DNA from: a virus | Length of the DNA stretch: 64,000 nucleotides | IMG/VR virus record: IMGVR_UViG_3300032331_001766 | Location: 1 to 64,000 of that record | Strand: one strand, 5' to 3' | Shown: one piece after another, positions 24,938 to 49,458 of the stretch | How the letters are laid out: every line of letters starts with the position of its first letter | Position numbering within the stretch: the first letter of the stretch is position 1 | Program-made: the position numbers and the translations under genes | Notes under the pieces: generated by a model | What the model was told of the DNA's origin: nothing | The model's input: the letters and a program-made list of their open reading frames with translations, nothing else | Database searches by the model: none

Positions 24938-25506
24938 TAAATGATTATACTATCTTTTAAAGCATTTTTAACTAAAAATGTAGTATAAGTATATCTTACA
25001 CCTTCTATTATTTTTTTCACTCCATGATCAATCATTGCATGATGAATTACTAGATCTCCAGCAACTGGCTTATATTCTAAATTTAGATCTGGATAATATA
25101 TTTCTCCACCATTAAAACAATCGTTTAAATAAAGCACTACTCCATACTCTGTAATAGCACAGGTTCCAAAATCATCATTTGCTGTTACTTCATCATCTCC
25201 ACAGCTGTCTGTGTGGACATGCATTTCATCACCTGGGAACATCCTTGTAAAGGATAGGCTAGGAGTAGGAGTATGTGTATCTTTAACTAGCTCATTAACT
25301 TTTTCTAGGATAGGCTTTGCTTCGTCTACAAATATTGTAGTTTTGCCGTTATACCACTCAATAGGGTTAACAGTTGTTGTCCAAACTTCATGGGGGTAAT
25401 TCATACATTTTTCATGTAGGCCTTTGGCTTCTTCTTTAGAGATAAAATTTTTATACAAAAAGATATCTTCTGCAAGCTTTATAACTCCTGAATACTCTTT
25501 AAACAT
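24937..25506 (-). CDS. 2OG-Fe(II) oxygenase
   Basis: HTD, YLNDCFNGGE, HGV..EGVRY. Confidence 0.9.
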   Translation of the reverse strand: MFKEYSGVIKLAEDIFLYKNFISKEEAKGLHEKCMNYPHEVWTTTVNPIEWYNGKTTIFVDEAKPILEKVNELVKDTHTPTPSLSFTRMFPGDEMHVHTDSCGDDEVTANDDFGTCAITEYGVVLYLNDCFNGGEIYYPDLNLEYKPVAGDLVIHHAMIDHGVKKIIEGVRYTYTTFLVKNALKDSIII

Positions 25507-32191: not shown

Positions 32192-34039
32192 ATGGCAAGA
32201 TTATTTGTAACTGATATCAATCTGAATAAGAATGAACTTCAGAACGCTAGAATTCAGGGGCTAAGTTCTGCTCCTTCAGCACCAGTAAATGGACAAATTT
32301 ACTTTAATACAACAGACAAGGTTATGTATTATTACAATGGATTAGCTTCACCAGATGGTCCATGGGTGCCAATGTCTGGATCAACGGAAGTTATCCAGGA
32401 CGTACTTGGTTCTGCTATCAATGGCGGAGTTGGCTTAACTGCAACTTATAATGATACAACTGGAGTACTTACTTTAGATTTAGATAACACTGCTGTTACA
32501 GCAGGTTCATACGGATCATCAACAAAAATATCAACATTTACAGTAGATGCACAAGGTCGTTTGACTGCAGCAGGTGAAGTAGATGCAAACCTTTCAATTG
32601 CTGGAGACACTGGAACAGATACAGTTAATGTATTAACTGATACGTTAACAGTTGCAGGCGGAGAAGGAATTGATGTTGCTGTAACAAATAATACAATTAC
32701 AGTTTCTGGAGAAGATGCCTCTACAACTAATAAAGGTGTTGCATCATTTAATACAGATGATTTTAATACAACAACTGGACATGTAGAGCTAAAAGATACA
32801 GTAGTTAAATCAATTACAACTGATTCTGGAGCGCTTACTCCATCAACACATGGAATTTCAATTCTTGGTGGAGAGGGAATTGATGTAACTCATACTGGTT
32901 CATCAATTACAGTAGCAGCAGAAGATGCAACATCATCAAATAAAGGCGTTGCAAGCTTTGATTCAACAGATTTCACCGCTACAGCAGGAAATATAACATT
33001 AAATGCTGAGCGTGTACAAGATATTGTTGGTGGCTTAGTTTCTGGCGGAACTGGAATTACAGCAACCTATAATGATGCTGGAAATACAGAAACAATTAGT
33101 ATTACAAATACTGGAGTCTCTGCTGGAACATATGGTTCTGCAACAAAGACATCAACAGTTGCAGTAAATGCCCAAGGACAATTAACTTCTGCATCACATC
33201 AAGATATTGCAATTCCATCTACACAAATTACTGACTTTACAGAAGCAGTACAAGATGTTGCTGGAGCAATGGTATCTACTAATACAGAAAATGGTATTGC
33301 AGTATCATATGACGATACTTCAGGTAAATTAAACTTTGATGTATCCGATTTTGATATTACATTAACTGGAGACGTAACTGGTAGCGGAACAGTAACAAAT
33401 CTAGGAAACGTAAGCTTTGCAGCAACAATTCAACCAAACTCAGTAGAGCTTGGTACAGATACAACTGGTAATTATATAGCAACAATTGCTGGAACAGCAA
33501 ATCAAGTAACAGTGACTGGCTCAGGATCAGAAACAGCAGCTGTTACAGTAGGCTTACCAGATAACGTAGAAGTTGTTGGAAACTTAAGAGTTGGCGGCAA
33601 CTTAAATGTTGTTGGAACAGTTAATTCTGTAAATACAACTCAAGTAAATATTGTTGATAATAAGATTAATCTTAATACAGACTTTACAGGAGCACCAACT
33701 ACAGACGCTGGTATTCGTGTAGAGCGTGGAACATCTGCTGATGTTGAAGTATTATGGAATGAGTCCTCAGATAAGTGGACACTTACAAATGATGGTACAA
33801 ACTACCACTCAATTGCCAGAAAATTTACTTCAGACATAACAACAACAACCGAAGCCCCATTCACATTTGTGGCAACACACAATTTAGGAACAAGAGACGT
33901 TACAGTACAAATTTTTGCAACATCTTCTCCATGGAACCAAGTTGAATGTGATGTTGATCTAACCTCTACATCACAAGTAACTCTAACATTTGCAACACAG
34001 CCAACAGCTGGTGCATATAGAGTAGTTATTGTAGGATAA
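32192..34039 (+). CDS. tail fibre-like protein
   Basis: Thr/Gly-rich, AGxYG..VDAQGRLT repeats, C-terminal HNLGTRDV. Confidence 0.75.
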   Translation: MARLFVTDINLNKNELQNARIQGLSSAPSAPVNGQIYFNTTDKVMYYYNGLASPDGPWVPMSGSTEVIQDVLGSAINGGVGLTATYNDTTGVLTLDLDNTAVTAGSYGSSTKISTFTVDAQGRLTAAGEVDANLSIAGDTGTDTVNVLTDTLTVAGGEGIDVAVTNNTITVSGEDASTTNKGVASFNTDDFNTTTGHVELKDTVVKSITTDSGALTPSTHGISILGGEGIDVTHTGSSITVAAEDATSSNKGVASFDSTDFTATAGNITLNAERVQDIVGGLVSGGTGITATYNDAGNTETISITNTGVSAGTYGSATKTSTVAVNAQGQLTSASHQDIAIPSTQITDFTEAVQDVAGAMVSTNTENGIAVSYDDTSGKLNFDVSDFDITLTGDVTGSGTVTNLGNVSFAATIQPNSVELGTDTTGNYIATIAGTANQVTVTGSGSETAAVTVGLPDNVEVVGNLRVGGNLNVVGTVNSVNTTQVNIVDNKINLNTDFTGAPTTDAGIRVERGTSADVEVLWNESSDKWTLTNDGTNYHSIARKFTSDITTTTEAPFTFVATHNLGTRDVTVQIFATSSPWNQVECDVDLTSTSQVTLTFATQPTAGAYRVVIVG

Positions 34040-34041
34040 TC

Positions 34042-34338
34042 GTGGCTAGACAATTTCTAACCCCACTTACATTAGCGCTATTAGAAGAAAATCCAGCTAG
34101 CCCAATTGCTGGACAAATTTATTATAATACGACAGAACAAACAATCAAAGCGTATAACGGAATTGTTTGGTACGATGTAGCTGGACCTAAAGAAATTCTT
34201 GAGCACACTCACGGAACAGATGGCGCAGTAAATGAAGTGTTGTTTGCAGATTACGTTGATGAAGATAGAGTCTTTGCAAACTCTGGAAACATAGCTTCAA
34301 GTTTTATATATGATTATATTGATGGGGGTGGTGCATAA
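34042..34338 (+). CDS. small virion protein
   Basis: P...GQIYYNTT....YNG..W fibre motif. Confidence 0.65.
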   Translation: MARQFLTPLTLALLEENPASPIAGQIYYNTTEQTIKAYNGIVWYDVAGPKEILEHTHGTDGAVNEVLFADYVDEDRVFANSGNIASSFIYDYIDGGGA

Positions 34339-37300
34339 TGGCAATTAGAATTCAATTACGCAGAGACACAGCAGCAAATTGGACTTCAGCAAATCCCGTT
34401 CTGGCTAACGGAGAAATGGGTATTGAGACAGATACCTTAAAAGCTAAAATAGGTAATGGCTCTGCCGCATGGTCAACAAGACCATATATAAACGTACTTC
34501 CATCAGAACTTACAGAGCTAGCACAAGATGCTGTCAACTCAGCAATTGTTGCAGGCGTTGGATTAGATAAGACATACGATGATGCAGGAAATACAATAAC
34601 ATTAGATATTGACTCTACTGTAGCAACTAAAACATTTGCAGCAGAGCTTTTAACAAATGCTACAAAATCAAACATTGTAATTACTGGAGATCAAAATGGT
34701 CTTACAATTACTGCAGAAAACGGAGTCGCAGACTCTACAACAGATAACCTTGCAGAAGGCTCAACTAATAAATATTTTACAGATGAAAGAGCGCAGGATG
34801 CTGTAGGAAATGCTTTAGGAAATGGTCTTAAGTATACAGACTCAACTGGAGCAATTGAACCAAATTTAACAACAGCTGGCGGAATAAAAATAGATGTATC
34901 TGGCAAATTAGCTGCAGATTCTCAATACGTAACATTTAATACTGAGACACAAACGCTTACAAATAAAACATTAACAACTCCAAAGGTTAATGAAAACGTT
35001 GCGCTTACATCAACATCAACAGAGTTAAATATACTTGACGGAGCAACATTATCTACAACAGAACTTAATTATGTAGATGGCGTTACATCAGCAATTCAGA
35101 CTCAAATTGACAACAAGGCTTCTTTATCTGGAGCTACATTTACAGGAGCAATATCTGGTACAAGCCTTACTTTGTCTGGTGACCTTACTGTTAATGGAAC
35201 TACAACAAATATTAACTCTACTAATTTAACTGTAGAAGATAAGAATATCGTTTTAGGAGATACCGCAACACCATCAGATGCAACTGCAGATGGCGGAGGT
35301 ATTACATTAAAGGGCTCTACAGATAAAACTTTTGCATGGTCAGATGCTACAGATTCATGGACATCATCTGAAAATATAAACCTTGCTTCAGGCAAGTCTT
35401 ACACTATTAATGGAACTAATATTAAAAATGTATCTGAGACTCTTACAAATAAGACTCTTACATCTCCAACAATAACATCCCCAACAGTTTCTGGCCTATA
35501 TTTATCAGACAACTCAGTAACATTTGAAGGACAAGGCGGAGATGATCAATATGAGACTATACTTTCTGTAGAAAATCCTACAGCAGATAGAACTATTATT
35601 CTTCCAGATGCTTCAGACCGTTTAGTTGGTAGAGCAACAGAGGATACATTAACAAATAAAACATTAACTCTTCCAAAAATTAATGATAATACTTTGCTTA
35701 CAGCAACTTCAACAGAACTTAATGTTTTAGATGGAATTACTGCCTCAACTTCAGAATTAAATAAGCTAGATGGAGTAACTGCAAGCACAGCAGAAATTAA
35801 TACTTTAACTGGAATAACTGCTTCAGCATCAGAACTTAATATTTTAGACGGAGCGACATTATCTACAACAGAATTAAATTATGTACAAAATGTTACTTCT
35901 TCAATTCAAACACAATTAAATTCAAAGCAACCAAAAATTACTGGAGTTTCAGATACAGAAATTGGTTACCTTGATGGAGTTACCTCTGCAATCCAGACAC
36001 AAATAGATTCTAAGCTTCCAAAAGCTGGTGGAACTATGACAGGTGCCATTGCAATGGGCACAAATAAAATTACAGGCTTGGGAACACCAACAGACAATAC
36101 AGATGCATCAACTAAAAATTATGTAGATTTAGCGGCAGCTGCTTCTATTACAAGCTCTAACTCTACTACAACTACAAAATTAGGCGATTACACAATTGAT
36201 GGTACTGCTGGAAATACAGTAACTTCAAGAATTGCTACAGCTAAAGGGCAGGCCAATGATTATACAGATTCCGCAATAAGTGGTCTTAGCAATACAGTTA
36301 CTACAGAGTATGTACCTTTAGCAATTTTAGCTCAAGAAGATGGAGTTGCAACATTAAATTCATCTGGCTACGTTCCTTTAACACAGTTAGACCCAGTTGT
36401 TGTAACAACAACAGGTGGAACAATTCCTTTAGCTAAATTAGATTCAACTGTTGTTTTGACAACATCTGCTCAAACACTTACAAATAAAACTTTAACCTCA
36501 CCAAAAATTAATGAAAACGTTGCTCTTACTACAACAGCAACTGAGTTAAATTATGTTGGTGGAGTAACATCAAGCATTCAAACTCAATTAGGTACTAAAT
36601 TAAACCTATCTGGTGGAACAATGACTGGAGCTTTAACTCTTTCTGCTGCCCCAACATCAGACCTGCATGCAGCAACTAAACTATATGTTGATAACGTAAC
36701 TGCTGGAATTAACTTCCACGAATCAGTTCACGCAGCCTCAGTATCAAACCTATCAACAATTTATAACAATGGAACATCTGGAGTAGGCGCAACACTTACA
36801 GCAGATACAAACCGTGCATTCTCAACACTTGACGGAGAATCAGTTGTTGTTGGACAAAGAGTACTTATTAAGAACCAGACAGACTCAAAGCAAAACGGTA
36901 TTTATACATTGACAACATTAGGTTCAGGATCTGCTCCATGGGTATTAACTCGTGCAACAGATGCAGATAATAACCCAGTTGGAGAAATGAAGACAGGTGA
37001 CTTTGTATTTGTTCAAAACGGAACAATAAATGCATCTATTGGATATATTAATAATTCAACAGCAAACCCAATAGTAATTGGAACAAGCAATATTACTTAT
37101 ACAGAGTTTAATGCTGGTAAAACAGTAGTTGCTGGAACTGGTTTGACAGAAGCAACTCCTGGAACATTATCAATTGATACTGGTATAACTGCTAATTTAT
37201 CAGGTGCTCAGACATTAACTAATAAAACAATTTCTGGTAGCTCAAACACATTAACAAATATTGCAAATAATAGCCTAGTTAATAATTCTATAACTTTAGG

Positions 37301-38324
37301 TACAGTAACTACAATACTTGGAAATACATATACAACATTAGAAGGATTTACATCAATCTCTGCAACAACATTTACTGGTGATTTTACTGGAAATTTGACA
37401 GGAAATGCATCTACGGTAACAAATGGTATTTATACAACTGGCACATACGCAAATCCAGCTTGGCTTACATCTTTAAGCGCAACAAAAGTTGGTTTAGGAA
37501 ATGTTGAGAATACAGCTCTTTCAACATGGACTGGAAGCACTTCATTAGTTACACTAGGTACAATTACAGATGGAACATGGTCTGCAAATACAATTGCCTT
37601 AAATAAAGGTGGAACTGGTGCAACTACACAAATTGGAGCAGCAAATGCAATATTACCATCACAGACAACAAATGCAAATAAATATTTAACTACAGATGGC
37701 TCAAATGTTTCATGGGCATCGGTTCCAGCAGGATATAATGCACCAACAATTGGTACAACATTATTACAGTCTGGAACGACTTATCCAGGATTTGCTAATT
37801 TACAATTAGCAACTGCAACACTAGATAATGCAACAATTAATGCTGCAACAATGACTGGGGCTATTATAGTACCAACCCCAACAGCAAATAGCCATGCAGC
37901 AACAAAATTATATACAGACACAGCAGCAACAAATGCAGCAACAGCTGCTGGAACAATAGAAAGAACATATACAAATGATCGTTTAGACATAGTTCCATTA
38001 GATGATATAAGCACATTATTTAATGGGTCTGAGTCTAGATTCCCAGCAAAGGTCGGTGGAACGAAAATAGATATTACTAACCCGCTTAGACTTTTGATAA
38101 ACATTAATGGTATAATTCAAATGTTGGGTAATCAAGATAACCATTGGTTGTCGCCGATTAATGAAGATGGATTTTATATAGATGGAGACGGATATATAGA
38201 ATTTGGGGAGCCAATACCATTTGGTTCTACATTTGATGCAAGGCTTATGCCAGGCAAGACAAGCAATACTTTAGAAAAATCAAGATATCCGTTCAGAGCA
38301 ACAGATATATTACTAGGAGCGTAA
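34338..38324 (+). CDS. long tail fibre protein (Mtd-N-like N-terminus)
   Basis: IQLRRDTAANWTSANPVLxxGExGxETDT; QTLTNKTL and ELNxLDG repeats. Confidence 0.8.
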   Translation: MAIRIQLRRDTAANWTSANPVLANGEMGIETDTLKAKIGNGSAAWSTRPYINVLPSELTELAQDAVNSAIVAGVGLDKTYDDAGNTITLDIDSTVATKTFAAELLTNATKSNIVITGDQNGLTITAENGVADSTTDNLAEGSTNKYFTDERAQDAVGNALGNGLKYTDSTGAIEPNLTTAGGIKIDVSGKLAADSQYVTFNTETQTLTNKTLTTPKVNENVALTSTSTELNILDGATLSTTELNYVDGVTSAIQTQIDNKASLSGATFTGAISGTSLTLSGDLTVNGTTTNINSTNLTVEDKNIVLGDTATPSDATADGGGITLKGSTDKTFAWSDATDSWTSSENINLASGKSYTINGTNIKNVSETLTNKTLTSPTITSPTVSGLYLSDNSVTFEGQGGDDQYETILSVENPTADRTIILPDASDRLVGRATEDTLTNKTLTLPKINDNTLLTATSTELNVLDGITASTSELNKLDGVTASTAEINTLTGITASASELNILDGATLSTTELNYVQNVTSSIQTQLNSKQPKITGVSDTEIGYLDGVTSAIQTQIDSKLPKAGGTMTGAIAMGTNKITGLGTPTDNTDASTKNYVDLAAAASITSSNSTTTTKLGDYTIDGTAGNTVTSRIATAKGQANDYTDSAISGLSNTVTTEYVPLAILAQEDGVATLNSSGYVPLTQLDPVVVTTTGGTIPLAKLDSTVVLTTSAQTLTNKTLTSPKINENVALTTTATELNYVGGVTSSIQTQLGTKLNLSGGTMTGALTLSAAPTSDLHAATKLYVDNVTAGINFHESVHAASVSNLSTIYNNGTSGVGATLTADTNRAFSTLDGESVVVGQRVLIKNQTDSKQNGIYTLTTLGSGSAPWVLTRATDADNNPVGEMKTGDFVFVQNGTINASIGYINNSTANPIVIGTSNITYTEFNAGKTVVAGTGLTEATPGTLSIDTGITANLSGAQTLTNKTISGSSNTLTNIANNSLVNNSITLGTVTTILGNTYTTLEGFTSISATTFTGDFTGNLTGNASTVTNGIYTTGTYANPAWLTSLSATKVGLGNVENTALSTWTGSTSLVTLGTITDGTWSANTIALNKGGTGATTQIGAANAILPSQTTNANKYLTTDGSNVSWASVPAGYNAPTIGTTLLQSGTTYPGFANLQLATATLDNATINAATMTGAIIVPTPTANSHAATKLYTDTAATNAATAAGTIERTYTNDRLDIVPLDDISTLFNGSESRFPAKVGGTKIDITNPLRLLININGIIQMLGNQDNHWLSPINEDGFYIDGDGYIEFGEPIPFGSTFDARLMPGKTSNTLEKSRYPFRATDILLGA

Positions 38325-38329
38325 CGCAA

Positions 38330-41300
38330 ATGGCAAGAAAAATTTTATTAGAAACAGCATATACATTTACACCGTCAGCAAATACGGTTGTAATTCCAAA
38401 GACAATTTTGAGAGAAAGACTGTTACTTATCACAAATGTGACATCTAACCAAGTTATTTATAACTTCTCAGATCCAAGTTTAAAAGCAACATCATATATT
38501 ACTAACACAGACTCAAGCGCAAATGAGTCTACAACAATTGTATTAAGCTACAATACAGCAGCAATGCTTTCAACAGACAAGCTTTCCTTTACAATTGATG
38601 AATATGCTGAAAAATTTGAGCCAGCAGAGACATTGATGGACCCAACAAATAAGTTGAGAGTATCAACTCCACAATCTCTTATCGATACCGACTTTGAGTA
38701 TGGTACACAGATTTCTAAGTGGGAAAATTTAGGTCTTTATAACAATAGACCATTTTCTTATACAAGCCCAACACAAATTTCAAATATTTCAGGAATTGCA
38801 ATGGCTAATGGTTCTAGAACTGTTACAGTCACACTTTCATCTGGAGCAGCTCCAGCAAACAATACACCAATTGTTGTACAGGATACATACCTACAAGCAG
38901 CAAATGGTAACTTTATTATCGAAACAGGCGGAGGAGGATCATCATTTACTTACACTGCGTCATCAACAAATACTACATCAGTGACAGCGATCTTTGATCC
39001 AAATAAAACAGTAGTATCAACAGGAAATCTATTTTCTGGTGCACAAATTGGTGGAACACCAACTCTTTCATATTCTGGTCGCAAAATTACAGTAACAACT
39101 ACAATTCCTCATGGCCTAGCATTAGGAAATGAAATTGTAGTAATGGGTGTAACAGCTTCAACAAATGCACCAAATGGAAATATGGAAGTTGCACAGATTA
39201 CAAGCTCTACAGTCTTCTCATACTATGCAGATGCTATTCCAACTGGAACTTTAGCTGCAGGTTCAATTTACGTAAGACCACAAGCATCATTCTCACACAG
39301 ACCAGCAGATGGCGGAGTTATTTTCGGTACAAACTCTGGTTCAAATTATGCTTCAGCAACAAGACAGACAAGACGTTATTTCCGTTACCAATCAGGTAAA
39401 GGTATTCAATTCTCATCTGGAACAATTTTAAAGCCATACGCAGGTATTGATTCAATTACTTGGGATGGATCTATTGTTACAGTTCAAACAAAAGAAAGAC
39501 ACAATATTCAGCCAGGAACAGTTGTTAAGGTTGGTGGTTGTGATCAGTATCAATTTAATGGAACATTTACAATTACAAGCATTATAGCTTTTGATAAGTT
39601 CCAGTACACACCAACAACTTCACCAACAACATCAATTGCTACTGGTGCATTTTATGCTTCAGTAGAAGGATGGACTGGCTGCCAAAATAGACTAGGCGGA
39701 TTTGATAGTCAAAATGGTTTATTCTTTGAGTATGATGGTAAGACATTGTATGCAGTTAGAAGAAATTCTACATTCCAGGCTTCTGGAAGAGTTAGCGTAA
39801 CAAATGGAACATCTTTGGTTACACAAACATCTTCAACATTCCCAACCTACTTTGCAAAGCAATTTGCACCAGGAGACTACATTGTAATTAGAGGTCAATC
39901 ATATAAGATTCAAGATATTGCATCAAACGTATCTATGACAATTACGCCAGCATATCGTGGAGCAACCACAGATTATGCAATTCTTTCAAAGACTCAAGAA
40001 ACTCGTATTGCTCAATCATCGTTTAATATTGATAAACTAGACGGAACAGGCCCATCACAATACAATCTAGACTTAGGCAAAATGCAGATGTTCTATATTG
40101 ACTATACATGGTATGGTGCTGGTTTCGTAAGATGGGGTGTTAGAGGTCCAAAAGGTAACGTTGTTTATGTACACAAGATGCCTAACAACAACATGAATAC
40201 AGAAGCTTATATGCGTTCTGGAAACTTGCCAGGAAGATATGAATCTACAACAACACCTCCTTATACATTTACTAAGGCAGATATGCTAACAACAGATTCA
40301 GCTATATCAGTTTCAGATACTACCAAATTCCCAGACGCAGGTACACTTGTAGTTAGAAATGCAAGCACATACGAGTATGTAAACTATACTGGAAAAACAC
40401 AGTCTACTGGTATTTACACCACTACAGCTACAGGAACATCTGGAGTCGGAACTCTTGTTGTAGGTTCAAATACTGGACTAGCCGTAGGAATGACTGCAAC
40501 TGGTATTGGAGTTGGTTATGGCGCAACAATTACAAACGTAAACGGAACAGTCATTACTGTATCTGTTGCAAATACATCTGCAGTCAACGGAAACGTTGTA
40601 TTCAGCGGTGGAGCAACATCTGGTACATTCACTGGTTTAACTAGAGCAAAAGCTGGAGAAGCAAGCGTAAGCTTAACAATTGCAGCTGGAGCAAATGGTT
40701 GTACTGGAGTAACAACAACAAACCTACAAGTAGGTATGAGAGTAATTTCTTCAGCTTTCCCTGAAGGAACATATATTTCAAAGATTGTTGGAAGCGAAGT
40801 TACTTTCTCACAAGCAGCACTTTCTGCAAATCCAACTGGAGTAATTTTTGCTCCAATGGGTGCAACATCAGCTCAATTATTTACATATTCTGATACAGCC
40901 CCAACATGTGTTGAATTAGCTTTCCCAACATTCTCAGCATCAATTTCACACTGGGGAACATCAGTAATTATGGATGGTCGCTTTGATGATGATAAGTCGC
41001 TTGTCTTTACATATGGACAAAGAGTTGCAACAGCACTGGCACCAGCACAAAACGTTACAACAACAATCACAGGAACATCTGGAGCGAATACAATTGTAGT
41101 TGGTTCAGGTACAAACTTAGTACCAGGCATGTCAGTGACAGGAACTGGTATCGGAGCAGGAGCAACTGTAACAATTGTTAACGGAACAGGTATTACATTA
41201 TCTGTTAATAACTCAGGAACAGTTTCTGGTAACGGAACATTCTCTGGTGGTAACTCAAAGGCACTATTCTCAATTAGAGTAGCCCCTTCAGTAGATAATG

Positions 41301-41758
41301 GTATCGCAGCAGCGTTCGGTGCTCGTGAACTTGTAAACAGAATGCAGCTAACACTTAGAGCTCTTGATGTTACAACTTCAACAGCAGGTGCAAACCTACT
41401 CGTAACAGCCGTTTTGAATGGCCTTCCAAGCTCATCAACTCCTTGGACAAATGCAGTAGGAAATGCAGCAGGAGCAGTTAACTCTTCTCTAGCACAAATT
41501 GCAGATTATGCTGGTGGTTTAACAACAGTGTCTGGTGGAGAAGTAACAGCTGGATTCTTCGTTGGAACTGGTGCAAACTCAATCGATCTTTCAGGAGTTC
41601 GTGATCTTGGTAACTCTGTCCTTGGTGGCGGAGGAGTAAATGCTAACACAAATATCTATCCAGATGGACCAGATGTACTTACAGTAACAATTTCAAACCT
41701 TGGTACTACATCTGCATCAGTGTTCGGTAGATTATCTTGGACAGAAGCTCAGGCATAA
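38330..41758 (+). CDS. large virion structural protein (beta-rich repeats)
   Basis: VTTxxxHGL repeats, LxxGMxVTGxGI repeats, YQSGK/WYGAG motifs. Confidence 0.7.
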   Translation: MARKILLETAYTFTPSANTVVIPKTILRERLLLITNVTSNQVIYNFSDPSLKATSYITNTDSSANESTTIVLSYNTAAMLSTDKLSFTIDEYAEKFEPAETLMDPTNKLRVSTPQSLIDTDFEYGTQISKWENLGLYNNRPFSYTSPTQISNISGIAMANGSRTVTVTLSSGAAPANNTPIVVQDTYLQAANGNFIIETGGGGSSFTYTASSTNTTSVTAIFDPNKTVVSTGNLFSGAQIGGTPTLSYSGRKITVTTTIPHGLALGNEIVVMGVTASTNAPNGNMEVAQITSSTVFSYYADAIPTGTLAAGSIYVRPQASFSHRPADGGVIFGTNSGSNYASATRQTRRYFRYQSGKGIQFSSGTILKPYAGIDSITWDGSIVTVQTKERHNIQPGTVVKVGGCDQYQFNGTFTITSIIAFDKFQYTPTTSPTTSIATGAFYASVEGWTGCQNRLGGFDSQNGLFFEYDGKTLYAVRRNSTFQASGRVSVTNGTSLVTQTSSTFPTYFAKQFAPGDYIVIRGQSYKIQDIASNVSMTITPAYRGATTDYAILSKTQETRIAQSSFNIDKLDGTGPSQYNLDLGKMQMFYIDYTWYGAGFVRWGVRGPKGNVVYVHKMPNNNMNTEAYMRSGNLPGRYESTTTPPYTFTKADMLTTDSAISVSDTTKFPDAGTLVVRNASTYEYVNYTGKTQSTGIYTTTATGTSGVGTLVVGSNTGLAVGMTATGIGVGYGATITNVNGTVITVSVANTSAVNGNVVFSGGATSGTFTGLTRAKAGEASVSLTIAAGANGCTGVTTTNLQVGMRVISSAFPEGTYISKIVGSEVTFSQAALSANPTGVIFAPMGATSAQLFTYSDTAPTCVELAFPTFSASISHWGTSVIMDGRFDDDKSLVFTYGQRVATALAPAQNVTTTITGTSGANTIVVGSGTNLVPGMSVTGTGIGAGATVTIVNGTGITLSVNNSGTVSGNGTFSGGNSKALFSIRVAPSVDNGIAAAFGARELVNRMQLTLRALDVTTSTAGANLLVTAVLNGLPSSSTPWTNAVGNAAGAVNSSLAQIADYAGGLTTVSGGEVTAGFFVGTGANSIDLSGVRDLGNSVLGGGGVNANTNIYPDGPDVLTVTISNLGTTSASVFGRLSWTEAQA

Positions 41759-41770
41759 GGAGAATATAAA

Positions 41771-42271
41771 TTGTCTATCAATAAGGCTAAAGTCAATTAC
41801 GATGATGCCCTTGAGGTCAAATCTATAGTCTCATCTGATTCAGCGGGATTTAATGGTGTAACCTCTTTGGCTGGTACTACCAAATTACTAGGAATACTTG
41901 ATTTATCTCAAGGAACAGTAGTGTTTGCAGATGGTATCCAGTCAAAGCAGGGAACACCTTCCCTAACTGATATTAAAGTTAAATATTTTAACTACACATT
42001 ATCATCATTAGATGATAGAGATAGTATTATTGAAATGAATAATGTTGCTGCAAATACATTAACTGTTCCATTAGATTCTACAACTAACTTTCCTATTGGA
42101 ACAACTATTGATATAATTCAAGCAAATGCTGGTCAAACTACAGTTGTTGCAACAGCAGGAGTTATTATTAATGCTACACCTGGTTTACAGCTAAGACAAA
42201 AATGGTCTGTTGCTACATTATTAAAAAGAGCACCAAATACATGGTTGCTTTTTGGCGACTTAACAGCTTAA
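41771..42271 (+). CDS. tail-fibre-associated protein
   Basis: TVP....FPIGT.I.I.Q..GQ ... WxxxGDL pattern; AAGGAG RBS, TTG start. Confidence 0.7.
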   Translation: MSINKAKVNYDDALEVKSIVSSDSAGFNGVTSLAGTTKLLGILDLSQGTVVFADGIQSKQGTPSLTDIKVKYFNYTLSSLDDRDSIIEMNNVAANTLTVPLDSTTNFPIGTTIDIIQANAGQTTVVATAGVIINATPGLQLRQKWSVATLLKRAPNTWLLFGDLTA

Positions 42272-42282
42272 AGGGGATATAA

Positions 42283-43911
42283 ATGAGTAAAAAGGCTGGT
42301 AGAAAATCTGATCAATTAGCTGGTGACTTTCAGATACCATCTAAACCAAATAAACCTACCGCTGTAGATGTTGGAACTAATAGACTATATAATAATGGTT
42401 CACATATTGTTTCATTTACATATCCTTCAGGTCAGCCACCAGTTTCTTCATATACAGTTATTTCTTCTCCTGGAGGATTTACAAATGTTGGAGCATCAAG
42501 TCCAATTACAGTTGTAGGTCTACAGTCTAATATTGATTATACTTGGACAGTAACTGCAACTAACGTAAATGGAACATCAGACCCTTCAGATCCTTCTGAT
42601 GCAGTAAAAGCTACAACAGTTCCAGAAGCACCAATTAATGTAACAGCAATATCAAATACAACTGGACCAGGGCATAATGCAAACACTCCTGATCTTCGTG
42701 GACAAGATACTGTTTCGTGGACAACTCCAACAAATAATGGTGGAAAACCAATATCAACTTATACTGTTTTATCATCAGATGCAGTAGCTCAACCAGGAGG
42801 TCTTGGTCCTTCTTATACCGTAACAGCACCAACAACAACTATAAATATTAGAGAAACTATGGGTACTACTCAAACCTATACGGTTACTGCAAATAATGCT
42901 AATGGTTCATCTTTAGCTGGAGCAAGTTCCTCTGTTACTACATTCTTTTCCCCACCAGTATTCTTTTCGCCACCTCTATTCTTTGCGCCACCGCTGTTCT
43001 TCAGCCCACCGCTGTTCTTCAGCCCACCCCTATTTTTTGCGCCACCGCTGTTCTTCAGCCCACCGCTGTTCTTCAGCCCACCTCTATTCTTTGCGCCACC
43101 GCTGTTCTTCAGCCCACCGCTGTTTTTCAGCCCACCTCTATTTTTTGCGCCACCGCTGTTCTTCAGCCCACCAGGGTTCTTTAATCCTCCTGGATTCTTT
43201 TCACCACCAGCGTTCTTTGCGCCACCTCTATTTTTTGCGCCACCGCTGTTCTTTTCCCCACCAGCATTCTTTTCACCACCAGGGTTTTTTAACCCTCCTG
43301 GATTCTTTTCACCACCAAGATTCTTTGCACCCCCATTATTTTTCTCCCCACCAAGATTCTTTTCCCCACCAGCATTTTGTATTGCAGAAAATACATTAGT
43401 CTTAACTACAGACGGATACAAGAAGGCAAAAGATATTGAAGTTGGTGATATTTTATCAACAGTCTCATTTAATAATCTTCCTTTAGGAGATAGTAATTGT
43501 TCAATAGGTAATATTACAGATAAATGTATTGATATTGTTGACAAATGGAACTCTGAAGGACTACATGGTGTTAATTTCCTAGAGTCAAAAGTTACAGATA
43601 TTAAAGAAGCAGTATATGAGTCTTCAATCTATTTTAATGATGATTTTTCAAAAGAGCTATCTTTATCAGAACAGATACTTGTAAACAGAGATGAAAAGTT
43701 TACATTTAAAACAACATCTGAAATTAAAGTAGGAGATACTATAATATCTTACTCAGATAAAGATTTAATTGATATTAAAGTTGAGTCTATTAATATTGTA
43801 GAAAAAGAAACAAAAACATTTTTATTCTACAGAGATCCATATGGATTAATTATTGCAGACGGTATGCTTGCATATAATGGTTGTCCAGCCCTTTCCTTGA
43901 CCAACAACTAA
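42283..43911 (+). CDS. FN3-FN3-(FFxPPx)24-Hint autoprocessing protein
   Basis: Two FN3 domains (GLxxxxxYTxTVTAxNxNG; NGGKPIxxY), 24 hexapeptide repeats, Hint C-IAENTLVLT..G.K.AKDIEVGD...ADGMLAYN. Confidence 0.85.
   Translation: MSKKAGRKSDQLAGDFQIPSKPNKPTAVDVGTNRLYNNGSHIVSFTYPSGQPPVSSYTVISSPGGFTNVGASSPITVVGLQSNIDYTWTVTATNVNGTSDPSDPSDAVKATTVPEAPINVTAISNTTGPGHNANTPDLRGQDTVSWTTPTNNGGKPISTYTVLSSDAVAQPGGLGPSYTVTAPTTTINIRETMGTTQTYTVTANNANGSSLAGASSSVTTFFSPPVFFSPPLFFAPPLFFSPPLFFSPPLFFAPPLFFSPPLFFSPPLFFAPPLFFSPPLFFSPPLFFAPPLFFSPPGFFNPPGFFSPPAFFAPPLFFAPPLFFSPPAFFSPPGFFNPPGFFSPPRFFAPPLFFSPPRFFSPPAFCIAENTLVLTTDGYKKAKDIEVGDILSTVSFNNLPLGDSNCSIGNITDKCIDIVDKWNSEGLHGVNFLESKVTDIKEAVYESSIYFNDDFSKELSLSEQILVNRDEKFTFKTTSEIKVGDTIISYSDKDLIDIKVESINIVEKETKTFLFYRDPYGLIIADGMLAYNGCPALSLTNN
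42943..43374 (+). repeat. 24 x 18-bp coding tandem repeat (FF[S/A/N]PP[L/G/A/R/V])
   Basis: Counted directly; 54-bp higher-order period in first half. Confidence 0.95.
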
Positions 43912-43931
43912 CTAAATGCTATAGTATATTT

Positions 43932-44564
43932 ATGTACTCTAGAAAAGAAGAAGTCTTTCATGGCATCTGGAAATATTCAGATGTTTTTACTCCAGAGCTG
44001 GATTTAATTAATAGAATTGAATCAGAAGTAGAAAAAGAAGAGTTTTCCTGGAGAAAAGGTACAGTTGGGTTAGATGCTGAATATCCAGAATACAGAGATT
44101 GTTATGATCTTAAATTAAGTAGACTAGGCAAATCTCATCCCTTATATCAGGATATTTATAATGCTCAAGTACCATGTGTAAATGATTATTGCTCAATGTA
44201 TACAATTGAAATGAATTATTGGGAATGGACTAATATTGTTAAATATGAACCAGGACAACATTTTCAAGAACATGCTGATCATGGCTGGTCATATATATCA
44301 ACTGTATCTTTAGTTGGATATCCAAATGATAATTATGAAGGCGGAGATCTTTATTTTCCAAAACTTAATGTAACAATAAAGCCAAAAGCTGGAGACTTAT
44401 ATATATTCCCATCAGCATATATTTATTCACATGTTGCAAGACCAGTTTTATCTGGAACAAAGTATTGTTTTGCTACGATGTTAGATTATAATGATGACGC
44501 ACATTCAAAAGAATTTGAAGATTATTTAGATAAAAAATATAACAAAGAAAAGAGATTAATATAA
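43932..44564 (+). CDS. prolyl-4-hydroxylase-like 2OG-Fe(II) oxygenase
   Basis: HAD, NDNYEGGDLYFP, YSH..PV.SGTKY; TTGACC-17-TATAGT promoter 43897-43925. Confidence 0.92.
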   Translation: MYSRKEEVFHGIWKYSDVFTPELDLINRIESEVEKEEFSWRKGTVGLDAEYPEYRDCYDLKLSRLGKSHPLYQDIYNAQVPCVNDYCSMYTIEMNYWEWTNIVKYEPGQHFQEHADHGWSYISTVSLVGYPNDNYEGGDLYFPKLNVTIKPKAGDLYIFPSAYIYSHVARPVLSGTKYCFATMLDYNDDAHSKEFEDYLDKKYNKEKRLI

Positions 44565-45226
44565 TGTTACCAAATGCGGAACTTCTTTATCCAGGTATTA
44601 TTGTTTATAGAAATGTTTTTAGTGGATTAAATGTAATTGATAGGCTAGAAGAAGTTCTTTCTAATGATAGCTATGAAGAAAAATGGGCAGAGGCGTCTGT
44701 TGGATATTCTAAGCTAGATAAGTCTTATAGAGATTGCTGGGATCACCATATTAAAAAGAACATATTTGATGATACGGGTAAACCAGAATCTCAATTAAAG
44801 CTTGAATCAATATGGCAGGACTGCAGAGATGCACAAGATGCTGCTGTAGAAGATTATAGAGCAATGTTTAACTTACCGCCATTTGGATATTGGGAATCTT
44901 TTAATTTCATTAAATATGGTGCAGGTCAACATTTTCAAGTACATTCAGATCACGGATATTCTTATGTTTGTGTACTTTCTTCTGTTGGATATATTAACGA
45001 TGATTATGATGGCGGGGAACTATATTTTGATAAACTTGGACTTACCATAAAGCCAAAAGCAGGAGATCTTTATTTATTTCCATCTTCATATATATATTCT
45101 CATTCTGCAATGCCAGTTACAAAAGGTATTAAGTATTCTGTAGTTACAATGCTTGACTACTCAATAGCTACACATTCTCCAGAATATCGTGAGCTTGAAC
45201 AAAAGTATGCACTAGTAAAAGAATAA
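44564..45226 (+). CDS. prolyl-4-hydroxylase-like 2OG-Fe(II) oxygenase (paralog of previous)
   Basis: HSD, YSH..PV..GIKY. Confidence 0.92.
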   Translation: MLPNAELLYPGIIVYRNVFSGLNVIDRLEEVLSNDSYEEKWAEASVGYSKLDKSYRDCWDHHIKKNIFDDTGKPESQLKLESIWQDCRDAQDAAVEDYRAMFNLPPFGYWESFNFIKYGAGQHFQVHSDHGYSYVCVLSSVGYINDDYDGGELYFDKLGLTIKPKAGDLYLFPSSYIYSHSAMPVTKGIKYSVVTMLDYSIATHSPEYRELEQKYALVKE

Positions 45227-45235
45227 GGAATATTA

Positions 45236-45946
45236 ATGATTAATTTAGAAGTTTATAGATCAGGTCCAGATTCAGCAAACATAGAACCTCTTTCTGGTAA
45301 AAGACAGTGGATGGATGATAGTCAAGAAAAGCATGCATATAGATGTTTCCCTTTGAGCCTATCAAATCAACTGGGATGGTCTTTATCTTTTCCAGAAGAT
45401 ATAACATTTATGTGGGATGGTGAAATTACAACATCTTCAGAAAACGTTAAAGTTCTTCAAGGAGAAAAATATTGTAGTACAGCTAGAGGAAATGCAACAA
45501 TTAGCTTTAATACAAATTTAACTTTTAGAACTGATGCAAATCATAGTTTACTATCATATCCAGTACCAAATCATTTTGTAGATGGAGCAACACCATTTAC
45601 AACTTTAATGAGCACATCATTTTTTGAAGGTCAGCTTCCAGTTTCTTGGAGAATTACAAGGCCATTTACACCAATAACAATTAAGGCAAATGAACCTTTT
45701 ATAGCAATTCTTCCAGTATCATTAACAGAACTTCATTCTTCAGTGGCACAAATAAAGCCAATAGATAACATGAAACCAATATATAGAGAAAAGCCATTAA
45801 CGCTTGAAGGAGCAATAGAGGCTGGGAAAAAAGCAGCAGAAAATGGTGGATGGACAGATTACTATAGAGATGCTGTTGATTATATGGGTAATAAATTAGG
45901 TGAGCATGAAGTAAAGTCAGTTAAGCTAAGAGTAGAAGGTCACTAA
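45236..45946 (+). CDS. DUF6065-like protein
   Basis: RxWMD....AYRCxPL...NxxGW. Confidence 0.75.
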   Translation: MINLEVYRSGPDSANIEPLSGKRQWMDDSQEKHAYRCFPLSLSNQLGWSLSFPEDITFMWDGEITTSSENVKVLQGEKYCSTARGNATISFNTNLTFRTDANHSLLSYPVPNHFVDGATPFTTLMSTSFFEGQLPVSWRITRPFTPITIKANEPFIAILPVSLTELHSSVAQIKPIDNMKPIYREKPLTLEGAIEAGKKAAENGGWTDYYRDAVDYMGNKLGEHEVKSVKLRVEGH

Positions 45947-46660
45947 ATGAATAAGATAGGATTTTGGTCAAATCGTATTGCAAATAACGATTCCACTATT
46001 CCTGTTCCCGCAAAGAAAATAATTCCAGAATGGTTTGCAAATGCAAAGAAATATTGGAAAGATGAAAATGATCAAGAGTTTATAGTTGCTCCAGAAGAAA
46101 AGGGTTTAGGGTTTAAATCTTGCCCAGCATTATTAGATATATTTAATTCTGGTTACCTTTTAGTTACACCGTGTGATGTAGTTATATATAAACAAGATAA
46201 TAAAAGATTTGCTGTATCTTCACCAGGCTTTGATGATTTTTGTGAAGCAAGGCCATTTATGGGTGAATTTAATTATCCTCATGGTTATGGAACAGATTCT
46301 TTTCATTGGTTTCCAAACTGGGGATTTGATTTACCAGAAGGATATAGCGCTTTAGTTTTACACCCATTAAATAGATATGAGTTACCTTTTTTAACAACAA
46401 ACGGTATAATTGATAGTGATAGGTATGGCTCTCCAGGATTGATGCCATTTTTTCTTAAAGAAAATTTTACTGGCATAATACCCAAAGGAACTCCATTTGC
46501 ACAAATAATACCCTTCAAGCGTGAAGACTGGAAAGCAGATTACAAATTTTTAGAAGAAAAAGAAATGATTGCAAGACATGAAAAAACTGCAGGTAAATAC
46601 CGTGTTCCATTTGGTGGAATATATAAAAGACATACCTGGGTTCCAAAGAAATACGAATAG
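45947..46660 (+). CDS. DUF6065-like (dUTPase-fold-like) protein
   Basis: PxPA...PEWF, KxCP...D...GY, GIIDxD, IPKGTPFAQIIPFKR. Confidence 0.7.
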   Translation: MNKIGFWSNRIANNDSTIPVPAKKIIPEWFANAKKYWKDENDQEFIVAPEEKGLGFKSCPALLDIFNSGYLLVTPCDVVIYKQDNKRFAVSSPGFDDFCEARPFMGEFNYPHGYGTDSFHWFPNWGFDLPEGYSALVLHPLNRYELPFLTTNGIIDSDRYGSPGLMPFFLKENFTGIIPKGTPFAQIIPFKREDWKADYKFLEEKEMIARHEKTAGKYRVPFGGIYKRHTWVPKKYE

Positions 46661-46668
46661 AGGATGAC

Positions 46669-47346
46669 ATGGATCAAAATTTAGCTTGGGATGAAGGAAT
46701 TAGAACTGCAAGAACTTCTATAACACCTTCAGGATATTTTGGAAACTCTACAGACAATATTGTTGAACTTGAGAATATTGTAACAGAAGAAGAGTGCGAG
46801 TATATCTTAGAGTTTGCTAAACAAAATGAAATTTGGGATGTAACCCGTTCTGCAAAAAATGAAAATGGTAACATCATTTATGATCACAATGTTTGGGCTA
46901 ATCGTGTTGCAACTAAGCCATCTTTAGATCAATGTGATCCAAAAGTTACTGAAATTCTTAATAATATTTATGCAAGAATAAAGCCAAAGATTGAAGAGCA
47001 TTTTAATGTGGAATGTTATCCAACTGGACCATGTGTTGTTAGATGGCCAGTAGGAACAATGCAATGGCCTCATGCAGATAAAGAACTTCATGAGGGTCCA
47101 GATGCTGGAACACCAGGAAACTTTCCATGGTATGACCTAGGAACAGTTATTTATTTTAACGATGACTACGAGGGCGGAAGACTTCATTTTCCAAAACAAG
47201 AAATTGCTTTTAAACCAAAAAAGAGAGCAGCCTACTTCTTTGTAGGAGACTTAAATTATATTCATGGGGTAGATGTAATTACAGATGGAGTAAGATATAC
47301 GTCTCCTTTATTTTGGACAATTACAAAACTGGAGGCAAACAAGTGA
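46669..47346 (+). CDS. 2OG-Fe(II) oxygenase
   Basis: HAD, YFNDDYEGG, HGV...GVRY. Confidence 0.92.
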   Translation: MDQNLAWDEGIRTARTSITPSGYFGNSTDNIVELENIVTEEECEYILEFAKQNEIWDVTRSAKNENGNIIYDHNVWANRVATKPSLDQCDPKVTEILNNIYARIKPKIEEHFNVECYPTGPCVVRWPVGTMQWPHADKELHEGPDAGTPGNFPWYDLGTVIYFNDDYEGGRLHFPKQEIAFKPKKRAAYFFVGDLNYIHGVDVITDGVRYTSPLFWTITKLEANK

Positions 47347-48143
47347 TGTCAAACTTTACAATTAAAACTTTATATCCAAAGATTGATGTTTACAAAGGTT
47401 TGCTTCCAGACCATAAAGAAATTTTTGAAGTAATTAAATCTACAGAAGATACAGAAGGAGAACACTATTTTAATAAGTGGACTCCATGGAGCGCATTTGG
47501 TCTTTACTCATCAACTAAATTTAAGGGTGGAGTCCAAGACCAATTAGGAAAAAATGAAATATTTGATAAACAGTATTGGGCAGCAGAAACAGTTTACGAT
47601 GCATATAAAATTGCAGTAGATGACTATATTGAAAGAAATAATGTTATTCTGCCAGAAGGATCAGAACTTGGCTCTTCCTCTTTTTGTAAATATCATAGCA
47701 ATTTAAATGTTTTAAATAATAACTTAACTATGCAATATCATACAGATTTTAAACAAAGCGAAAAAGATATGCCAGGAAATCAGTTCTTCCTAACCTGTAC
47801 TGTTTATATAAATGATGATTATGAAGGCGGAGACATAGAGTTTTATATTGATGGAGATACAGCAGCTTACAAACCAGAGGCTGGAGATATTATGGTGTTC
47901 CCATCTGGAGAGCCGTATTATCATGGAGTCAAAACAGCAAACAATGGAACTAAATATTTAATTAGAAACTTTATGGTTTACCCAAACCCAGGATCAAAAG
48001 AATGGCTTGAAAATCAAGCTAGATATGGTGCTGTTAAATGGGCAAAGATGGAAGAAGAAAGATTATCTAAAGATAAATATGGCGGAAACATATTTATTAA
48101 AGATGGCAAAAGGGTAGACAGTCCTGAAGAAAGGGATCAGTAA
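47346..48143 (+). CDS. 2OG-Fe(II) oxygenase
   Basis: HTD, YINDDYEGG, YYHGV...GTKY; GGAGG RBS. Confidence 0.92.
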   Translation: MSNFTIKTLYPKIDVYKGLLPDHKEIFEVIKSTEDTEGEHYFNKWTPWSAFGLYSSTKFKGGVQDQLGKNEIFDKQYWAAETVYDAYKIAVDDYIERNNVILPEGSELGSSSFCKYHSNLNVLNNNLTMQYHTDFKQSEKDMPGNQFFLTCTVYINDDYEGGDIEFYIDGDTAAYKPEAGDIMVFPSGEPYYHGVKTANNGTKYLIRNFMVYPNPGSKEWLENQARYGAVKWAKMEEERLSKDKYGGNIFIKDGKRVDSPEERDQ

Positions 48144-48851
48144 ATGGAGATAGTAGCTTTAAAAGACGACGTATTTGTAATAGATGATTTAATTACACCT
48201 GCAGAATGTCAATCAATCATTGCTTATTTGGATGGTATTGTAAATGCTAATTTATTGCAATGGAACCAGATATCATTTTTTGGATCTTTTGCAATGGGTT
48301 ATTGGCCAAGTGATCCAAACTTGTTACACTTTGGTTTACCAGAAGATTATTTTGCACAACTTAAAAAGAAAATTAAAGATGCTGGAGAAGAATGTTTTAA
48401 GCGTGAATTTTCTGAAGTAAGTTATCATGCACAAAAATGGGTAGAAGGCGCATTTGCTGGTTTTCATTCTGACAATAGTCATGAAGATGGTAGTCCAAGT
48501 GCATTTTATAAAAGTAAGTATGCTGGCTTTTTGTATTTAAATGATAATTTTAATGGTGGTTTTTTAAACTTTAAGCATCATGATATTACCATAAAAGCAA
48601 AGCCAGGAAGACTAGCTTTCTTTAAGGGCGGTTATGGGAATGAGCATGAGGTTACTACAGTTAAAGATGGAGAAAGATATACCGTTGGTTCATTCTGGGA
48701 TAATGCTGATGAAGTTTATACACCAGAACAAGTTGCTGAATGGGAAAAAGAATTAAAAGAAACTAGAGCTTCTCAACAAGAAACATACAAGGAATGGGAA
48801 GAAGCCAAGAAAAATGGAATGATCCCACAATATATAGGTAAATATGATTAA
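48144..48851 (+). CDS. 2OG-Fe(II) oxygenase
   Basis: HSD, YLNDNFNGG, HEV...GERY. Confidence 0.92.
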   Translation: MEIVALKDDVFVIDDLITPAECQSIIAYLDGIVNANLLQWNQISFFGSFAMGYWPSDPNLLHFGLPEDYFAQLKKKIKDAGEECFKREFSEVSYHAQKWVEGAFAGFHSDNSHEDGSPSAFYKSKYAGFLYLNDNFNGGFLNFKHHDITIKAKPGRLAFFKGGYGNEHEVTTVKDGERYTVGSFWDNADEVYTPEQVAEWEKELKETRASQQETYKEWEEAKKNGMIPQYIGKYD

Positions 48852-49437
48852 AGAAGTATTACATCCAGAAATTCATTATTATAAAAATGTTATTTCTAAC
48901 CCAAAGGCTTTTGTAAAAGAGTTAGAGGATATGGATAGCTTTCAGTCAACAGTATCTCAAATATCAAAGTGGGAACAGTGGACTGCATCAAATCATGATG
49001 TTGTATATGGATCAGTTAAAAGATGCTTTTTAAATTTGTTTCAAAATACAACAGATGCTGATAGGGTAAATTCAAAGCTCTGCTCTATAGTTGCACACAA
49101 TGTAATTTCTATAGGTGAGCAATATTCCTTAGATTCTGGAATAGACCTCGGATATCTACCAGTATATTTTGGCATTAATAAATATAATGTTGGTGTTCAC
49201 ATGGGCGCACACGTAGATGCATATGATGGGGCTCAAGATGAATCTACTGTTTCTATGGTTATGTATTTAAATGATGACTACGAAGGCGGAGAGATAGAGT
49301 TTCCAGAGCATGGGATATCAATTAAACCAGAAGCTGGAAGCGTAGTCGTATTTGCCTCAAAGGGCGTTTTACATGATCCAAAACCTACAATATCTGGAAC
49401 TAAGTATATGATCCCCATATTCTTTTTCAAAAGATAG
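48844..49437 (+). CDS. 2OG-Fe(II) oxygenase
   Basis: HVD, YLNDDYEGGEIEFP, H.P...SGTKY. Confidence 0.92.
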   Translation: MIKEVLHPEIHYYKNVISNPKAFVKELEDMDSFQSTVSQISKWEQWTASNHDVVYGSVKRCFLNLFQNTTDADRVNSKLCSIVAHNVISIGEQYSLDSGIDLGYLPVYFGINKYNVGVHMGAHVDAYDGAQDESTVSMVMYLNDDYEGGEIEFPEHGISIKPEAGSVVVFASKGVLHDPKPTISGTKYMIPIFFFKR

Positions 49438-49458
49438 ATATTAGTATATAATAAAAGA

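Follow-up and report, generated by a model that had tools for sequence, protein, structure and literature searches.

In the 64,000-nucleotide stretch of DNA analysed here (the window), which is the first 64 kb of the 113,080-bp record IMGVR_UViG_3300032331_001766 from an uncultured phage, rated complete by CheckV, the last gene of a block of fibre-like genes encodes a protein with 24 consecutive FFxPPx hexapeptides, and eight same-strand, tightly packed genes (43932 to 49437) follow it directly. Six of these encode putative 2-oxoglutarate (2OG) Fe(II) oxygenases related to prolyl hydroxylases. We propose, at a probability of about 50%, that the locus is a phage module made of a substrate plus its tailoring enzymes, with the repeat as the likeliest substrate of the oxygenases. 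The repeat protein is the only Pro-Pro-rich open reading frame (ORF) of the genome, with 25 PP dipeptides against at most four in every other ORF of the 113 kb, and among its relatives a Pro-rich tail and a downstream oxygenase array occur exclusively together. The repeat protein is composed as follows, with model confidence given as the predicted local distance difference test (pLDDT).

42283-43911, plus strand: repeat protein, 542 aa, closing the fibre block; its conserved N-terminal peptide is followed by two FN3 domains, the 24 FFxPPx units and, at the C terminus, a Hint domain
42331-42942, plus strand: two FN3 domains (about residues 17-115 and 116-220); Pfam fn3 E 1e-7, pLDDT about 90, tandem-FN3 matches with Z 13-15
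42943-43374, plus strand: 24 x FFxPPx (residues 221-364); DNA period of 18 bp, with super-periods of 54 and 108 bp
43378-43878, plus strand: Hint domain of bacterial-intein-like (BIL) or Hedgehog type, Cys366 to Asn532; block-B His replaced (SLSEQ), penultimate residue Tyr, +1 residue Gly

The original prediction, made from the window alone, had described the last gene of the tail-fibre cluster as carrying two FN3 domains, 24 hexapeptide repeats and a Hint domain, and this anatomy is borne out by the ORF itself, by Pfam, by an AlphaFold model and by fold matches. Pfam recognises one FN3 domain only (residues 38-106, E 1e-7); the model contains two confident β-sandwich domains, and its residues 17-222 match the tandem Fn1-Fn2 pair of PTP-delta with a Z score of 14.9. 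The hexapeptides run in exact phase, and their two Phe and two Pro residues are invariant in 24 of 24 units despite mixed codons (TTC/TTT for Phe; CCA/CCG/CCT/CCC for Pro), with S, A or N at position 3 and L, G, A, R or V at position 6. TRF describes the underlying DNA as 23.9 copies of period 18 with 72% matches which, together with the mixed codons, indicates that the repeat is conserved at the peptide level and that selection acts on the peptide. The number of units ranges from 20 to 35 in close relatives (loci L002-L008 against the window, 57-75% identity), and the repeat must therefore expand and contract fast. It holds no Lys and is predicted to be disordered as a monomer, since its pLDDT of 40-47 in the AlphaFold model contrasts with the confident FN3 pair and C-terminal domain.

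The eight genes downstream are these.

43932-44564, plus strand: oxygenase 1; PF13640; HAD...H...K
44564-45226, plus strand: oxygenase 2; PF13640; HSD...H...K; sister orthogroup of oxygenase 1
45236-45946, plus strand: DUF6065 protein, type A; PF19541 with E 4e-36 and 125 bits against a cut-off of 26.6; invariant Cys
45947-46660, plus strand: remote relative of DUF6065, type B (phrog_7084); predicted dUTPase-like fold; carries the GIIDSDRYG motif and an invariant Cys
46669-47346, plus strand: oxygenase 3; PF13640 under the cut-off; HAD...H...R
47346-48143, plus strand: oxygenase 4; PF13640; HTD...H...K; charged C-terminal tail
48144-48851, plus strand: oxygenase 5; PF13640; HSD...H...R
48844-49437, plus strand: oxygenase 6; PF13640; HVD...H...K

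It had been predicted that six of the eight contiguous genes retain an HxD...H...K/R signature, and alignment confirms that the HxD, the second His and the Lys or Arg are in register in all six, i.e., that the iron and 2OG motifs are intact. Five of the oxygenases score 35.5-49.1 bits against PF13640 (gathering cut-off 27), and oxygenase 3 reaches 20.4, under the cut-off. Their nearest solved relatives are the Bacillus anthracis prolyl 4-hydroxylase (P4H; 3ITQ and 5HV0, E 3e-4 to 5e-6), the Pseudomonas hydroxylase PPHD (4IW3), PiuC, P3H1 and LH3. These relatives agree with the original assignment to the prolyl-hydroxylase class, and by homology the cassette enzymes are best placed in the P4H/PKHD branch of protein hydroxylases. 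Among isolated phages the genes closest to oxygenase 2 belong to T4-like cyanophages, at 24-37% identity. A complex prediction of oxygenase 2 with repeat residues 300-365, run without controls, returned a score of 0.00 and counts for neither side.

The link between repeat and enzymes was also examined by comparison. Relatives were collected as about 170 loci from viral metagenome contigs, all of which were scanned with profiles built from the oxygenases and DUF genes of the window. Every family member has the conserved N-terminal peptide together with two or three FN3 domains, and it is the tail that varies: the types seen are FFxPPx, FFPPFFPFFPP, YYNPPV and (TP)nVY, the Pro-poor FSPFGVFG, FGFTPFG and FTPYSF, and the Pro-free FGAFG. 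For the co-occurrence count we took non-redundant members for which 6 kb or more of downstream sequence was available and asked for at least three oxygenases within 8 kb downstream. Such arrays follow 32 of 32 Pro-rich proteins, usually with five to nine oxygenases, and none of the 48 Pro-poor proteins (FSPFGVFG-type). The converse search, starting from the type-B DUF protein, gave the same picture, in that a Pro-rich repeat protein (FFxPPx, FFPPFFPFFPP or YYNPPV) precedes every dense array for which upstream DNA is available. The gene order is thus conserved, and no separation of repeat protein and cassette was seen among the relatives examined, the cassette being absent from the Pro-poor sister group; this is the opposite of the independent assortment against which the original prediction had asked to be checked. 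The cassette comprises five ancient and distinct orthogroups (oxygenases 1/2, 3, 4, 5 and 6), each of which has been kept across the FFxPPx and FFPP-type lineages, and the oxygenases found near Pro-poor relatives fall outside all five. Complete genomes reflect the same division, with 8, 11 and 8 PF13640 matches in Pro-rich phages (cluster included) against 5, 4 and 4, all scattered, in Pro-poor ones.

Several loci at the edges of the family deserve mention. The Pro-poor relatives (L013-L092, e.g., L013:9983-11326 and L075:8740-9999) encode the same FN3-Hint protein with FSPFGVFG or FGAFG tails that resemble the repeats of FG-nucleoporins. These sister phages often have two repeat-protein paralogs per genome, followed by ORFs of 200-290 aa, and Pfam scans of those ORFs gave no family above cut-off. 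In L163 (4646-5998) the protein combines a (TP)nVY repeat, a Cys-rich stretch and a Hint domain, and it stands beside oxygenases that are fewer than in the dense arrays. In L164-L169 (e.g., L169:6564-7673) a Tyr/Cys/Gly-rich protein with SPSYPC and GGYYYAC units is followed by three DUF6065 genes, a PF11397 glycosyltransferase and a DNA methylase, without oxygenases.

The main rival explanation is a positional coincidence, in which an accessory dioxygenase battery of the kind known from cyanophage Syn9, situated in a variable region 3' of the fibres and acting on host proteins (e.g., translation factors), other virion proteins or small molecules, was fixed once in an ancestor that happened to carry a Pro-rich repeat protein. 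We consider this possible, if on balance unlikely, and it is here that the results weighing against our proposal have to be faced. A tree of the portal protein unites the Pro-rich phages in one clade with full support, the trait changing once, and the co-occurrence therefore represents one event rather than repeated co-evolution. A single event on the phage backbone that was then kept through deep divergence is compatible with function and with plain ancestry. The FN3 tree has 3-6 changes, all concordant, of which only three pairs are independent and well supported (p 0.25, too few), with the caveat that FN3 domains may be recombining. All these phages carry 3-5 scattered PF13640 genes, and in all of them accessory genes of variable content (ribonucleotide reductase (RNR), unknown ORFs) lie between fibres and portal. 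Directly behind the fibre genes of Syn9 stands an array of ten dioxygenases (PMC2938197), with no Pro-rich ORF in the 30 kb inspected, so that an array of this kind need not be accompanied by such a substrate. In cyanomyoviruses, moreover, it is usual to find several copies of 2OG oxygenases whose role is unknown (PMC3037559). The similarity of the cassette enzymes to characterised P4Hs is weak, the Hint domain of the window is non-canonical in that it has neither the block-B His (T-x-x-H motif) nor the penultimate His, and hydroxyproline was not detected in the virions of the algal virus PBCV-1 (PMC7019647). Furthermore, relatives of the type-B DUF protein adjoin thymidylate synthase and DNA polymerase genes in HSTV-2 and RNR genes in Pro-poor phages, and given these nucleotide-metabolism neighbours the link between DUF6065 and the repeat protein may be positional.

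Against coincidence, it would be a striking chance for the only Pro-Pro-rich protein of a genome to lie immediately 5' of enzymes of the Pro/Lys-hydroxylase type. The two have not separated in about 30 non-redundant Pro-rich loci that span deep divergence and four Pro-rich repeat types, and five orthogroups have stayed together throughout. The earlier claim that the repeat is a dedicated substrate is accordingly upheld in part: the sole Pro-Pro-rich ORF, the contrast of 32/32 with 0/48 and the kept orthogroups speak for it, while the single clade, the scattered PF13640 copies and Syn9 leave the word 'dedicated' in doubt.

Alternatively, the oxygenases may act on the repeat or on neighbouring fibre proteins at residues other than proline, for instance by β-hydroxylation of repeat Phe or Asn, or on Lys, Asn or Asp of the large fibre proteins. 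It is Phe, not Pro, that is common to all repeat types of the wider family, six divergent paralogs exceed the obvious need of two Pro positions, and LH3 and PiuC are among the solved relatives. We nevertheless find such targets improbable, because the Phe-rich, Pro-poor relatives have no cassette, the repeat offers no Lys, and the closest solved relatives are prolyl hydroxylases.

The two genes embedded in the array had been called DUF6065-like, a description that Pfam supports outright for type A and remote homology supports for type B. The type-B protein has no Pfam match, 12-23% of the members of its nearest Atlas clusters have PF19541, and it is a remote homolog of type A, with which it shares an invariant Cys. 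Its model (pLDDT 85) draws only dUTPases and dCTP deaminases as top Foldseek hits, with E values of only about 1e-3 and TM scores by target of 0.5-0.65. A motif-III-like GIIDSDRYG is present in the alignment, and the C-terminal motif V of dUTPases is not seen there. Relatives of the type-B protein, at 25-29% identity, occur in haloarchaeal viruses, namely L176 (Halovirus HSTV-2, gene 40) and about 50 records of haloarchaeal tailed viruses. By analogy with these neighbourhoods elsewhere, a nucleotide-related role for type-B proteins is possible. That the cassette as a whole works on nucleotides or DNA, its dUTPase-fold proteins handling (deoxy)nucleotides and its oxygenases oxidising bases or nucleotides, is the least probable explanation: the fold and its GIIDSDRYG motif, the type-B relatives beside thymidylate synthase, DNA polymerase and RNR, and a weak Tet_JBP match of oxygenase 6 (E 1e-3, under cut-off) would fit it, but above threshold the oxygenases match the P4H/PKHD family rather than AlkB or TET/JBP, the dUTPase-type C-terminal motif is missing from the alignment, and the cassette lies inside the late structural region.

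Behind the repeat lies the Hint domain. Pfam gives no Hint or intein match for the repeat protein, PF14890 is matched by 4 of 15 of its relatives, and the fold is recognised through model residues 363-532, which overlay on the Clostridium thermocellum BIL domain (2LWY) with Z 14.7 and a root-mean-square deviation of 2.2 over 133 aligned residues. Further matches are Tetrahymena BIL2 (6TMM, Z 14.6), Hedgehog (1AT0, Z 14.5) and mini-inteins. Cys366, at position 1 of the domain, directly follows Phe365, and this nucleophile is conserved in 72 of 72 non-redundant relatives, as Cys in 51 and Ser in 21. In the alignment the block-B column is without His in all 72 rows, and 8 of the 11 Pro-rich members have Gln there; TLEH or SLEH occurs near block B in a few relatives. 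At its other end the domain finishes in Tyr531-Asn532-Gly533, and the tail after Asn532 has only 10 residues. The replaced block-B His, the penultimate Tyr, the Gly after Asn532 and this short tail argue that the domain is not a splicing intein, and N-terminal cleavage or transfer is the reaction to be expected from its sequence. The Hint subfamily is small, with 109 representatives in 1.8 billion proteins, and phage-restricted, and the domain is C-terminal in the long matches that were spot-checked.

With the nucleophile placed where the repeat ends, cleavage would give a 365-residue FN3-repeat protein. Natural relatives without a Hint domain end 0-12 residues past the repeat (e.g., L155, L157, L160 and L148) and in sequence appear to mimic the cleaved product. 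The original prediction had also seen in the locus a logic like that of ribosomally synthesised and post-translationally modified peptides, possibly releasing modified peptides. Neither idea fits: the precursor is a 542-residue protein with two folded FN3 domains, its sole processing site lies at the C-terminal end of the repeat, Hint-less relatives stop only a few residues beyond the repeat, and maturation would yield one protein of 365 residues in place of small peptides.

We tentatively propose the following course of events for the substrate-plus-enzymes module. An N-to-S acyl shift by Cys366 at the Phe365-Cys366 bond would form a thioester, which water or another nucleophile would then resolve. 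The Hint part, of 177 residues, would be lost, leaving the 365-residue FN3-repeat protein with the 144-residue repeat tail as its C terminus. During late infection the six P4H/PKHD-type oxygenases would hydroxylate this tail, most likely at its Pro-Pro dipeptides, and the paralogs may divide the work by position or stereochemistry. The product would be a hydroxyproline-rich, aromatic appendage of the fibre apparatus that could serve as a spacer or adhesive, with the two DUF6065 proteins of putative dUTPase fold embedded in the array as accessory and as yet unexplained partners. A bolder version, which we think doubtful, would make the tail a covalently anchored 'glue' or tether. The oxygenases would turn the FFxPPx tail into a hydroxyproline-rich polymer comparable to extensins or mussel foot proteins, and the Hint thioester at Phe365 would be attacked, in place of water, by a nucleophile belonging to another virion protein or to the host envelope, in a transfer like that of Hedgehog or BIL-ubiquitin. 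The modified Pro/Phe polymer would then tie the FN3 domains to the fibre apparatus, and the Pro-poor sister proteins with their FG-nucleoporin-like FSPFGVFG tails could represent an unmodified variant of the same device.

Glycosylation of the hydroxylated tail, raised as a possibility in the original prediction, receives no support from the genome, as the one GT60-like transferase it encodes is separated from the locus by 57 kb and is missing in five Pro-rich relatives. This PF11397 gene (genome 106.9 kb), which is present in one Pro-poor relative, was considered as part of the system and rejected. PF11397 is the family of the Skp1 hydroxyproline GlcNAc-transferase. The surroundings of the gene (genome 105337-108030, outside the window; L175:4344-8026) comprise two divergent 2OG-oxygenase-like ORFs beside the PF11397 'GlcNAc' glycosyltransferase (E 5e-20), a ferritin-like gene and a CHAP peptidase, with a carbamoyltransferase upstream and a weak JmjC_2 match downstream.

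The locus is set within an ordered genome; two relatives of 110-111 kb have terminal repeats. RNR and a sugar epimerase are followed by the block of fibre-like genes (32192-42271) and the repeat protein; after the eight-gene cassette come a Laminin_G_3 protein and then portal, protease, capsid, adaptor and a very long tape-measure gene. One structural protein of 1142 aa (window 38330-41758) shares 46% identity with virion proteins of the T4-like cyanophages S-RSM4, Syn1 and S-RIM44. The match to the S-RSM4 fibre protein had at first suggested a T4-like cyanomyovirus, an identity that was dropped because of the 113-kb genome with its portal, protease, capsid and very long tape-measure gene. Judging from that identity in a phage of other architecture, fibre modules appear to be common to several phage types. 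GenBank phages gave no match to the locus by megablast, nor to the repeat protein, its Hint part or the type-A DUF protein by tblastn. Among cellular genomes the type-A DUF search returned only two short contigs of metagenome-assembled genomes, both with the same phage cassette. Other 2OG-oxygenase genes lie in the window at 6860-7384, 9302-9811, 23449-24057, 24386-24937 (minus strand) and 24937-25506 (minus strand), and a further one at genome 91009-91908 groups with oxygenase 4; most of the scattered genes fall outside the cassette orthogroups.

The original prediction had given the cassette its own promoter, and one match to the consensus stands in front of it.

43897-43925, plus strand: sigma-70-like promoter match just 5' of oxygenase 1, TTGACC-17-TATAGT with TG; consensus match only

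Promoter-like matches are no commoner in the region than in shuffled sequence, and no terminator was found between its genes. An octamer, TAGTATAT, occurs just 5' of the start codons of oxygenase 1 (43922-43929) and of the Laminin_G_3 gene (49442-49449); its three copies in the window are not above chance.

To our knowledge, protein hydroxylation is not a known modification of bacteriophage virions. Should our proposal hold, a phage would hydroxylate its own fibre-associated protein, five oxygenase orthogroups would gain a function, and a Hint domain would be seen to mature a phage protein. There would also be a new class of low-complexity Pro/aromatic appendage in phages that are abundant, and uncultured, in environmental metagenomes, and the enzymes could become tools for site-selective hydroxylation of proline. 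Catalogues have recorded multi-copy 2OG-Fe(II) oxygenases of phages since about 2007-2010, yet no substrate is known for them; DNA repair, 2OG drawdown and secondary metabolites are among the proposals (PMC3037559, PMC2938197). The present locus would offer these orphan enzymes a testable target, and a cheap one, as the test involves one 542-residue protein and six small enzymes. If hydroxylation proves false, the array becomes another orphan battery like that of Syn9. Neither the repeat-Hint family nor its pairing with oxygenases is described in the literature that we surveyed on DUF6065, phage proteins with Hint or FN3 domains, hydroxyproline in phages and BIL domains of tail-fibre proteins.

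The closest precedents are the P4H of PBCV-1 and the Syn9 array. The PBCV-1 enzyme accepts Pro-rich repeats as substrates (Eriksson et al. 1999, as cited in PMC7019647), and in so far as it is described there it resembles the present case as a virus-encoded 2OG oxygenase of the P4H type with repetitive Pro-containing peptide substrates and an unproven biological role. It differs in being one enzyme instead of six paralogs, in not being adjacent to a dedicated substrate gene, in having a eukaryotic alga as host, and in having no Hint domain, aromatic repeat residues or DUF6065 partner. The Syn9 array (gp41-gp54; Iyer, Abhiman, de Souza and Aravind 2010, PMC2938197) likewise has many distinct, anciently diverged tandem dioxygenases directly 3' of tail-fibre genes, and the features of such arrays, at least five distinct tandem dioxygenases and a Cys-bearing protein of dUTPase fold (here a predicted fold) downstream of fibre genes, recur here. 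However, the Syn9 enzymes are mostly of the 2OG-FeII_Oxy_5, PhyH, DUF6445 and JmjC types, accompanied by two Trp halogenases, and none matches the cassette profile, while our cassette has no Trp halogenase or JmjC (MINA-type) member. For Syn9 the authors proposed secondary-metabolite synthesis and not a protein substrate (PMC2938197).

The same study also treats bacterial operons in which dioxygenases are encoded next to collagen-like or tail-collar proteins, predicted to be their substrates (PMC2938197), and these operons share with the present locus a repetitive protein encoded alongside its predicted hydroxylase. In contrast to them and to the B. anthracis P4H, which is the closest solved relative of the cassette enzymes despite its weak E values, the repeat here is FFxPPx rather than Gly-X-Y, there is no sulfotransferase, and the candidate substrate carries a Hint domain. 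The BIL and Hedgehog domains (2LWY, 6TMM and 1AT0) have the same fold, with Cys or Ser at position 1, a terminal placement, no endonuclease and no +1 nucleophile, and it is for these reasons that cleavage or transfer is expected rather than splicing. Unlike them, the present clade lacks the block-B His, the penultimate His and a sterol-recognition region, and its upstream 'cargo' is a Pro/Phe polymer. Finally, the 2OG-Fe(II) oxygenases of T4-like cyanophages likewise occur in several copies and have no known function (Sullivan et al. 2010, PMC3037559), whereas here five orthogroups are clustered beside a candidate substrate, in a 113-kb phage that is not T4-like and has a long tape-measure gene.

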